DNA of 64,000 bases from Escherichia phage EC121. Under the pieces are notes generated by a model, which saw only the letters and a list, made by a program, of their open reading frames with translations, ran no database searches and was not told the origin of the DNA. Position numbers and translations under genes: made by a program. The stretch lies in the sequence record NC_054909.1, one strand, 5' to 3'. Each line of letters begins with the position of its first letter. The stretch's first letter is position 1. Shown piece by piece: positions 26,642 through 29,263 of the stretch.

Positions 26642-26823
26642 AATGAATTTATATAATCAATGAGTTCTTGTTCTTTATTATCGAATTCTTTAGAAAGTTC
26701 TTCGTACTCGTTTGCACTAAAAGGACCGCATTCATTACAAACTTTTTCCAATTCGCTATTTTTATCCATAACTTCGTGGATAAGAGAAAAGAGTTTGTCT
26801 TTTTGTTCTTTACTCAGACTCAT
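26638..26823 (-). CDS. small helical protein (61 aa), S/T-x-EQ family
   Basis: MSLSKEQKDKL, C-terminal YINSL. Confidence 0.5.
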   Translation of the reverse strand: MSLSKEQKDKLFSLIHEVMDKNSELEKVCNECGPFSANEYEELSKEFDNKEQELIDYINSL

Positions 26824-26993
26824 ATATTAAATCCTAGAAGTTTTAAGATAATTCGCTTTTGCTTAAATATTTCCATCGTTAAATGATCAGTATCTTTTTG
26901 ACCAATTCCAATAGCAAAACCCTTATTTACGGCAAGTTCAATTAAATTATCAATATTGCGTAAAACTTCATAGCGTAACTCAAAATTATTCAT
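26820..26993 (-). CDS. small hypothetical protein (57 aa, below ORF-track cutoff)
   Basis: ATGA start/stop overlaps at both ends link it into the gene chain. Confidence 0.4.
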   Translation of the reverse strand: MNNFELRYEVLRNIDNLIELAVNKGFAIGIGQKDTDHLTMEIFKQKRIILKLLGFNI

Positions 26994-27217
26994 TTTGGTT
27001 CACCTTCTTTAACGAAATCCGGATAAGGATTAAATCCAGAATAAAATCCTTCACCTTTATGATTGCTACAACCCTTGTTCGAGCAATAGCACCAATAATC
27101 GAAATCACAAGCCATTTCATCGTTGCATAAAGCAAAAACAACCGGCCACTTACACTTTTCACAGTGGGCATTTTTAAGAATACTAGTTTGGCTCATAACC
27201 ATGTAACCTTTAAGCAA
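26990..27217 (-). CDS. hypothetical Cys-rich protein (75 aa)
   Basis: ten cysteines incl. CEKC, CSNKGC. Confidence 0.5.
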   Translation of the reverse strand: MLKGYMVMSQTSILKNAHCEKCKWPVVFALCNDEMACDFDYWCYCSNKGCSNHKGEGFYSGFNPYPDFVKEGEPK

Positions 27218-27405
27218 TATTCTTCTACATGTTGTTTACGACCTTTCTTATCAATAAAGGTATATTCAACGAATGTTCCAATGTAGTCTTTATCTACATC
27301 ATGTGGACTATTAATTGGACATTTAGTACGGCAAATGCGTTCCCATTGACGAATAATTACTGCTTTGTTTTTAGGATCAAACGGATGCGGGTAATGTACT
27401 TTCAT
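27193..27405 (-). CDS. hypothetical protein (70 aa)
   Basis: minus-strand ORF. Confidence 0.45.
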   Translation of the reverse strand: MKVHYPHPFDPKNKAVIIRQWERICRTKCPINSPHDVDKDYIGTFVEYTFIDKKGRKQHVEEYCLKVTWL

Positions 27406-27856
27406 AATCCACCACTATTAAATCAATATCAGGAGTAAACATGTCGATTAATTTAGAAACCTTATCCCAATCGCCGCCAGCAATACCACAACCTATACGC
27501 GGAATGTAAATTACTGGTTTAAACAAAAGGGTTTCTGCCTGTAGATTTAATTCTATCATGCAGTTTACTAAAGCACCATAATCAAGATTAGGACCTGGTT
27601 CGTATTGCGTATACAGGTTATAGCATATGCCAAAACCATTAGGTTTATGTTTAAAAACAATAGACATATCGCCTAATTTATCACGAGAACCGTACTCAGT
27701 AGTGGTTTTATCTATTTCTAAAATTTTGGGATAGGCTCTTGCTAATTGACCCGCTACGCCTGAACCCATAGTATGAAAACAATTGCACCCGTGCGCAATA
27801 ATATTACCTTGAAGAAATAGGGCGACAATATCGCCCTTGATATATTTTACAATCAT
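27377..27856 (-). CDS. macro-domain-like protein (putative ADP-ribose binding/hydrolase)
   Basis: GDIV...IAHGCNC...MGSGVAGQLARAY and IPRIGCGIAGGD resemble macro-domain signature blocks. Confidence 0.6.
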   Translation of the reverse strand: MIVKYIKGDIVALFLQGNIIAHGCNCFHTMGSGVAGQLARAYPKILEIDKTTTEYGSRDKLGDMSIVFKHKPNGFGICYNLYTQYEPGPNLDYGALVNCMIELNLQAETLLFKPVIYIPRIGCGIAGGDWDKVSKLIDMFTPDIDLIVVDYESTLPASV

Positions 27857-28200
27857 CTAGTACTCAATCCTCGATTATAAGAATCTACTAAACGGTCAAC
27901 CATTGAATGACAAGCGGCTTTATCTTTCTCCTCCGCAACTGAACATTCTAAGGTATTCCACTTTTTAGCATATCGTTTTAACAATGTATCATTTTTGTAT
28001 CTGCTTGATTTATCTCTTTCTCCGTCTTTATATGCATATATTAATTTCTGCGCAAATTCAGCTTGGCATGCTTTATTTTTCCCACAATAATCCGCGGCAG
28101 TACGGTTTACATACTCTCTAATTTCAGTATATGATGTATCTGCTGATGCAGAAGCAGAAAATGAAATTAATCCTATACATAAAACCAAAATTTTAGTCAT
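27853..28200 (-). CDS. hypothetical secreted protein (115 aa)
   Basis: N-terminal signal peptide MTKILVLCIGLISFSASASA. Confidence 0.55.
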   Translation of the reverse strand: MTKILVLCIGLISFSASASADTSYTEIREYVNRTAADYCGKNKACQAEFAQKLIYAYKDGERDKSSRYKNDTLLKRYAKKWNTLECSVAEEKDKAACHSMVDRLVDSYNRGLSTR

Positions 28201-29234: not shown

Positions 29235-29263
29235 ATTATACCACAGTCAAGAGGAAAAGTAAA
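29235..29263 (-). promoter_or_regulatory. sigma70-type early promoter upstream of regB
   Basis: GTTTACT -35, 17-nt spacer, TATAAT -10. Confidence 0.45.

Follow-up and report, generated by a model that had tools for sequence, protein, structure and literature searches.

What use does a T4-like phage make of a macro domain of its own? The question is raised by a small gene of Escherichia phage EC121 that lies in the stretch of DNA analysed here (64,000 nucleotides of record NC_054909.1, hereafter the window). An original prediction, made from the sequence alone, had read positions 27377-27856 as a macro-domain-like protein that could be regulatory or directed against a host defence, with DarT-type systems among the candidates.

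Genomic position of the gene

The list of open reading frames, confirmed on the raw sequence, gives at 27377..27856 on the minus strand an ATG-to-stop frame of 159 amino acids, and the window belongs to a T4-like phage (Tequatrovirus). In a nucleotide comparison, the 1.4 kb around the frame proved 98% identical to numerous T4-like phages of Escherichia and Shigella, and in some of these records the gene is entered as "Macro domain protein" or "phosphatase". As in T4, the genes follow one another in the order rI, rI.1, tk, tk.1, tk.2, an insert, tk.3, tk.4, vs, vs.1 and regB; in the T4 reference genome, tk.4 (NP_049723, "phosphatase; contains A1pp phosphatase motif") is found between vs and tk.3. 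The frame in the window lies between the same two genes, which makes it the orthologue of T4 tk.4 by position. The features of the locus are the following:

27377..27856, minus strand: tk.4/adfM coding sequence, 159 aa, a stand-alone single macro domain
27853..27856, minus strand: ATGA overlap of the vs stop and the tk.4 start, read from the sequence; T4 has the same 4-nt overlap
27377..27405, minus strand: 3' end of tk.4 overlapping the tk.3 start by 29 nt, from the ORF coordinates
29235..29263, minus strand: candidate sigma-70-like promoter (TTTACT-17-TATAAT, TG-extended) upstream of regB, from a consensus scan only

The minus-strand run regB-vs.1-vs-tk.4-tk.3 is tightly packed, with overlapping stops and starts, and the ATGA overlap between vs and tk.4 suggests that the translation of the two may be coupled. 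At the other end of the gene the overlap with tk.3 spans 29 nt, compared with only 4 nt in T4; it encodes the C-terminal tail of Tk.4, which has four extra C-terminal residues relative to T4 Tk.4. The site at 29235..29263, a strong consensus match just upstream of regB, could serve the regB-vs.1-vs-tk.4 run as an early promoter; it is a lead and not a proof. In the consensus scan, the total of promoter-like sites across the region was not above the expectation from shuffled sequence, so the timing of tk.4 expression rests on the analogy with T4, by which this would be an early region.

Sequence and predicted fold

Profile and structure searches agree on the nature of the protein. Residues 22-136 align with positions 2-117/118 of the Pfam model PF01661 (Macro; E=6.2e-8), and the score of 33.1 bits lies above the gathering cutoff of 22. 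PHROG 335 ("phosphatase") matches the protein at 1.8e-71. When the protein was searched against the sequences of the PDB, the only entries with significant E-values were macrodomains: BT1257 (2AFC/2FG1; 1.7e-10) and SCO6735 (5E3B; 8e-8), as well as Poa1p (6LFQ-6LFU), M. tuberculosis DarG (5M3I) and human TARG1. SCO6735 (5E3B) matched the profile of the Tk.4 family at 7e-15.

An alignment of 68 homologues, obtained from a large-database search, served as input for AlphaFold2. The resulting model has a mean pLDDT of 93.5 and a pTM of 0.88, with disorder limited to the last four residues (156-159, pLDDT below 50). A Foldseek search with this model against the PDB returned 167 matches at E<=0.001, led by TARG1 (E=5e-10, TM up to 0.82), with BT1257, Poa1p and the DarG macrodomains next, at a probability of 1.0 for each of these four; the best 50 of the 167 consisted entirely of macrodomains and of designed serine hydrolases built on the macro-fold scaffold TTHA0132. 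Model and fold search together predict a three-layer alpha/beta/alpha macro fold. The macro-domain reading of 27377-27856 is therefore corroborated by the Pfam score above cutoff, by the confident model and by the fold search, and the absence of a macro fold from structure prediction, which would have spoken against that reading, was not what we found.

The sequence blocks on which the reading had been built are all present in the translation, namely KGDIV (with D9), IAHGCNC (H22-C26), MGSGVAGQLARAY (M30-Y42) and IPRIGCGIAGGD (I118-D129). Their assignment to macro-domain motifs was also correct: HGCN takes the place of NAAN, MGSGVAG that of GGGVxGA, and the second diphosphate loop is PRIGCGIAGG; the first motif, rightly described as a variant, retains its key asparagine (N25). 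The frame almost certainly encodes a macro-domain protein orthologous to T4 tk.4, with which it shares the locus, the ATGA overlap, the single domain, PHROG 335 and very nearly the length.

Active-site residues

The residues discussed below are encoded at the following positions:

27830..27832, minus strand: Asp9 codon (KGD motif), nearly invariant; aligns with the Asp of the TARG1 KGD motif
27782..27793, minus strand: His22-Gly23-Cys24-Asn25 codons, first motif (NAAN equivalent), from family conservation
27758..27766, minus strand: Gly31-Ser32-Gly33 codons, GxG phosphate-binding loop 1, from alignment
27605..27607, minus strand: Gln84 codon, at the catalytic-Lys position of TARG1 (K84), DarG (K80) and PhiKZ AdfM
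27473..27502, minus strand: Pro119-Gly128 codons (PRIGCGIAGG), diphosphate-binding loop 2, with P119, G122 and G124 invariant

In alignments with solved macrodomains that have ADP-ribose bound, the ADP-ribose-binding elements D9, G31-S32-G33 and G122-C-G124-I-A-G-G128 are conserved. Asp9 corresponds to Asp20 of TARG1, counted along the PDB-verified TARG1 sequence, and we take it to be the conserved macrodomain Asp in contact with the adenine of ADP-ribose. Asn25 occupies the position of the conserved catalytic-site Asn and aligns with N27 of SCO6735 and with N23 of PhiKZ gp104. Fourteen residues are invariant in the 68 family members (H22, G23, N25, C26, G33, A35, D49, N80, Y82, Q84, P119, G122, G124 and W130), and the alleles of the window and of T4 each carry all of them; C24 is nearly invariant (at least 90%). 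G31 and G33 are invariant across the phage, DarG, TARG1 and BT1257 sequences, GxG being a well-conserved motif of the macro fold (PMC9503650).

The key position is Gln84, whose context is LYTQ in the window protein and FPTK in DarG and PhiKZ gp104; BT1257 and SCO6735 also carry Gln there. A MAFFT alignment and two HMM alignments concur on this placement. A further, seven-sequence MAFFT L-INS-i alignment had put the "NMIGQ" strand of SCO6735 and BT1257 in a gap, and it was set aside in favour of the other three because these agree with one another and match the structure-based alignment described in PMC9411070. For these comparisons the human TARG1 sequence was one identical to PDB 2LGR/2L8R, the DarG and SCO6735 sequences came from PDB alignments and that of PhiKZ gp104 from the methods of the paper on it. 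The alignments also place Ala126 where TARG1 has Asp125 ("PRIGCGLD125"), so that the TARG1 catalytic dyad K84/D125 reads Q84/A126 in the window protein.

Relation to other macrodomains

The best solved sequence relatives of the window protein are SCO6735 (5E3B) and BT1257 (2FG1/2AFC; about 27% identity), both ALC1-like macrodomains of the Gln type. They share with it the Gln at the catalytic-lysine position, its partner Asn (Q85 and N27 in SCO6735 for Q84 and N25 here), H-x-C-N and PRIGCG(L/I)AGG. SCO6735 is also a stand-alone protein, although bacterial where Tk.4 is phage-encoded. The top structural match is human TARG1/OARD1 (4J5R, 4J5S; TM 0.72-0.82), which has the KGD, PRIGCG and W motifs in common with the window protein. 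Tk.4 of the window is a stand-alone macrodomain of the TARG1/ALC1-like class, and its family has no catalytic lysine of the DarG kind and is closer in this to SCO6735.

The likeness to SCO6735 has its limits. Compared with BT1257 and SCO6735, the loop after Gln84 is missing about six residues, the lysines K34 and K89 of SCO6735 are missing (Ser32 stands at the K34 position), Gly23 takes the place of Val25, and the window protein is acidic (pI 5.25; Tk.4 family median 5.7) whereas SCO6735 is strongly basic (pI 9.85). The extended mobile loop and basic DNA-binding surface that mark the SCO6735 subclass are thus not found in the window protein. The shorter loop, the lost Lys34 and Lys89, the missing DarG/TARG1 catalytic lysine and the low pI count against the hydrolysis of DNA-linked ADP-ribose that we propose below; yet the AdfM of PhiKZ, which is active on DNA, has a pI of 5.05.

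The DarG macrodomains (M. tuberculosis 5M3I, T. aquaticus 5M31) are of the same fold class (TM about 0.73), and both DarG and PhiKZ gp104 share the conserved Asn and the Gly loops with the window protein. They differ from it in the catalytic lysine, which lies in FPTK where the window protein has YTQ. The two phage proteins that bear the name AdfM, those of T4 and PhiKZ, are thus members of distinct macrodomain subfamilies, with about 20% identity. DarT2 would be an opponent common to the window protein, DarG and PhiKZ gp104, by experiment for PhiKZ gp104 and by extension from T4 for Tk.4 of the window. Membership in the DarG family itself was considered and rejected: the protein reaches 27.7 bits on the NCBIfam model NF048014, whose cutoff is 250; the catalytic K80 position is the family-invariant Gln84; the protein has one domain of 159 aa, compared with a model of 338 positions, and is without the C-terminal DarT-binding domain; and its neighbours in the window are vs and tk.3, with no adjacent darT. 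With score, lysine, architecture and context all failing, Tk.4 is not a macrodomain of the DarG type.

Poa1p (6LFQ-6LFU) resembles the window protein strongly at the N-terminus, where its "HSCNC...GGGIAYQLALRYPK" faces "HGCNC...GSGVAGQLARAYPK", and its active-site residues His23 and Ser30 align with H22 and T29. These residues are named from the mutants in PDB 6LFS and 6LFT; a third, F152, could not be placed, and the C-terminal half aligns weakly, with little sequence similarity past residue 80. The similarity to Poa1p accounts for the "phosphatase" annotation. A deacetylase of the MacroD/YmdB type, the name given by JGI to some homologues, was rejected on its NCBIfam score: the O-acetyl-ADP-ribose deacetylase model NF001661 gives 16.5 bits where the cutoff is 291. 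In a comparison by eye, A35 and A39 of the window protein presumably stand where the MacroD motif "GGGVDGAIH" has its Asp and His.

Proposed function in counter-defence

The gene is already known and annotated, and its function was assigned in T4 in 2025. Orthologues of tk.4 had been matched to the A1pp (macro) domain in work published in 2006 (PMC1524935). A T4 transposon library grown on E. coli with DarTG2 yielded a single significant hit, tk.4, and a clean tk.4 knockout rendered T4 sensitive to DarTG2, for which reason the November 2025 preprint renamed the gene adfM, for anti-DarT factor Macrodomain (bioRxiv 10.1101/2025.11.20.689424). Its authors go no further than saying that removal of ADP-ribose from DNA by the enzyme "seems likely" (bioRxiv 10.1101/2025.11.20.689424), and in the literature on tk.4 and ADP-ribosylation we found no enzyme assay for any Tk.4-type protein. 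PhiKZ gp104, likewise named AdfM in Cell Reports, removes ADP-ribose from DarT2-modified DNA in vitro, and its N23A variant has reduced activity (PMC13309987). The original prediction had not recognised the gene as the long-annotated tk.4 of T4-like phages.

For a macrodomain without the lysine, the relevant chemistry is that of SCO6735. This protein cleaves the ADP-ribosyl-thymidine made by DarT and saves E. coli from the toxicity of DarT; the Q85A variant is inactive and N27S nearly so; the mechanism proposed is water-mediated, with the Gln holding the distal ribose in position; and thymidine de-ADP-ribosylation has been called a unifying function of this macrodomain class (PMC9411070). These activity data provide a credible chemical route for the lysine-less Tk.4.

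We hypothesise that Tk.4, made early, probably hydrolyses the ADP-ribosyl-thymidine that DarT2 forms on phage DNA, by way of Asn25, Gln84 and a water molecule. Tk.4 would be expressed together with its early neighbours regB, vs.1 and vs, and the host DarT2 would ADP-ribosylate thymidines in single-stranded phage DNA. The macrodomain would bind the DNA-linked ADP-ribose and hydrolyse the bond between thymine and ribose, so that ADP-ribose is released, normal DNA is restored and replication of the repaired phage DNA can go on. Catalysis would follow the route of SCO6735 and not that of DarG: Gln84, fixed by Asn25, would position the distal ribose and water would do the chemistry, with no need of a catalytic lysine. 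The anti-DarTG2 phenotype is known from the T4 allele, and we infer by analogy that the 57%-identical allele of the window does the same job and uses this mechanism. The DarT-type link suggested from the sequence fits the published genetics of the T4 orthologue (bioRxiv 10.1101/2025.11.20.689424). Of the two general roles suggested with it, the anti-defence one has gained support from the DarTG2 sensitivity of the T4 tk.4 knockout, and a regulatory one, by reversal of the phage's own ADP-ribosylation, is unsupported.

Other activities of a macrodomain could be considered. Tk.4 may act on soluble ADP-ribose derivatives instead of modified DNA, as an ADP-ribose-1''-phosphate phosphatase like Poa1p, as an O-acetyl-ADP-ribose deacetylase or as a degrader of NAD-derived immune signals. 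The T4 annotation ("A1pp phosphatase motif") is compatible with such a role, as are the place of Poa1p among the best sequence and fold matches, with H23/S30 facing H22/T29, and a survey which argues that phage macro domains mostly target small ADP-ribose derivatives (PMC9503650). We nevertheless consider it unlikely, since DarTG2 sensitivity is the sole known phenotype of the T4 orthologue and DarT2 modifies DNA, since the deacetylase score falls far below its cutoff and since the "phosphatase" label derives from the name of a domain and not from an assay. Appr-1''-p is not a known product of T4 RNA repair. A protein without the canonical catalytic lysine might also be no enzyme at all and mimic an antitoxin, binding and inhibiting DarT2 or shielding ADP-ribosylated DNA; indeed, the dead variants SCO6735 Q85A, DarG K80A and TARG1 K84A inhibit DarT in vitro, that of SCO6735 most strongly (PMC9411070). 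However, H22, N25, Q84 and both Gly loops are invariant in 68 diverse homologues from many phage groups and some bacteria, a pattern more in keeping with a conserved catalytic pocket than with a surface for binding one toxin, and the single domain of 159 aa has no counterpart of the C-terminal DarT-binding domain of DarG. We therefore regard the mimic as very unlikely.

Improbable to much the same degree is the reversal of ADP-ribosylation on RNA or protein, whether made by the phage's own Alt, ModA and ModB or by other ADP-ribosyltransferases of host defence. Macrodomains of the TARG1 class, SCO6735 included, do remove ADP-ribose from uracil in RNA (PMC13036486, PMC9411070), SCO6735 also strips it from proteins (PMC9411070), and T-even phages encode three ADP-ribosyltransferases (also PMC9503650). 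Against this, no phenotype or assay ties Tk.4 to RNA or protein, and the T4 screen linked tk.4 specifically to DarTG2. Alt, ModA and ModB modify arginine, and cleavage of arginine-linked ADP-ribose is not known for this macrodomain class. Hydrolysis of DarT2-made ADP-ribosyl-thymidine is thus the reading we prefer. Hundreds of T4-like phage genomes carry this gene under the routine misnomers "phosphatase" and "hypothetical protein", and the reading gives it a likely role in neutralising the DNA ADP-ribosylation defence DarTG2. The reading is supported but not novel, since the assignment of T4 tk.4 predates it; what our analysis adds to the existing annotation is the detail of a mosaic allele and a Gln-type active site, not a new kind of system.

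A mosaic allele and its distribution

Tk.4 of the window is only 57% identical to T4 Tk.4 in amino acid sequence (over 155 aa, E=1e-69) and 66% in nucleotides, whereas identity to T4 is 96-100% for the flanking proteins regB, vs.1, vs, tk.3, tk.2, tk.1, tk, rI.1 and rI. Along the DNA, identity to T4 is 93-100% through vs, falls to 82-88% in the first ~130 nt of tk.4 and to 45-73% over the remainder, and recovers to 90-100% within tk.3. The reverse holds for Gaprivervirus PSD2001: its Tk.4 is 93% identical to that of the window, but identity is as low as 46-74% for regB, vs.1, vs, tk.3 and tk. Tequatrovirus G8 combines T4-like flanks with a T4-like tk.4 allele. A divergent tk.4 amid near-identical flanks, and the opposite pattern in PSD2001, show that tk.4 has passed between phage genera as one unit, and the allele of the window may be a cassette acquired from a Gaprivervirus-like lineage. 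T4-like phages carry at least two very different tk.4 alleles, which move between genera against an unchanging background of flanking genes.

A gene-sized replacement of this kind is typical of accessory, conflict-related genes and fits a gene engaged in an arms race, and it does not by itself prove a difference in function. With only 57% identity to the T4 allele, the specificity of the window allele could differ. We find it doubtful that Tk.4 of the window is a specificity variant instead of a neutral substitute, directed at ADP-ribosyltransferase defences unlike those countered by the T4 allele, in a family that would throughout use the lysine-independent Gln/Asn/water chemistry and so differ from DarG and the unrelated AdfM of PhiKZ; if so, its targets may be other DarT2 variants or toxins directed at RNA or protein.

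Beyond the phages, one bacterial homologue (Pelagimonas) stands alone amid unrelated housekeeping genes, and a second homologue lies on a phage-like contig, close to genes of nucleotide metabolism. No darT was found near the homologues at these two loci, a small sample. With a stand-alone bacterial homologue that has no DarT neighbour, genomic context neither supports nor opposes the link to DarT. Among phages the gene is widespread: tblastn found relatives in 2772 phage records, many more than chance could account for, and proteins at least 95% identical in 277. The allele of the window type is present in roughly 270-280 of the ~720 records that share this locus, and Shigella phage ESh17 encodes an identical Tk.4 protein.

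Allele boundaries of tk.4

Nucleotide identity between the window and T4 is 45-73% across most of the macrodomain gene tk.4 (compared region 27374..27780); directly outside the gene, in the flanks 27194..27373 and 27841..28200, it is 90-100%. As judged from this sequence comparison, tk.4 is bounded by sharp recombination boundaries. The allele closest to the window Tk.4 is that of a Gaprivervirus, with 93% amino acid identity, and the flanking genes of the same Gaprivervirus are only 46-74% identical to those of the window. The tk.4 stop lies 29 nt into tk.3 (27377..27405), whereas the two genes overlap by 4 nt in T4, and for the extended C-terminal tail of the window protein disorder is predicted for the final four residues.

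The tk.2-tk.3 interval carries additional sequence with two small ORFs, and a pair of small ORFs likewise occupies this position in phage G8:

26825..27191, extra segment of 367 bp, absent from T4
26820..26993, minus strand, small ORF of 57 aa, phrog_3452
26990..27217, minus strand, small ORF of 75 aa, Cys-rich, phrog_2306

Candidate transcription signals

Immediately upstream of regB we found one promoter-like match:

29235..29263, minus strand, sigma-70-like promoter match, TG-extended, TTTACT-17-TATAAT, 10/12 matches

Going by its sequence, this candidate may be the early promoter for regB-vs.1-vs-tk.4. Within the N-terminal coding part of tk.4, the scan flagged as terminator-like, on both strands, a hairpin at 27819..27837 whose 8-bp stem is perfectly paired (AGGGCGATATTGTCGCCCT); this hairpin probably arises incidentally from the codons that specify G-D-I-V-A-L.

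Two phage macrodomains named AdfM

The literature and alignment A1, our macrodomain alignment including phage, DarG and TARG1 sequences, show that the name AdfM is now common to two unrelated phage macrodomains, T4 Tk.4 and PhiKZ gp104. At the catalytic-Lys position T4 Tk.4 is of the Gln type (YTQ), whereas PhiKZ gp104 is of the DarG type (FPTK); their identity is only about 20%, and their catalytic mechanisms are probably different.
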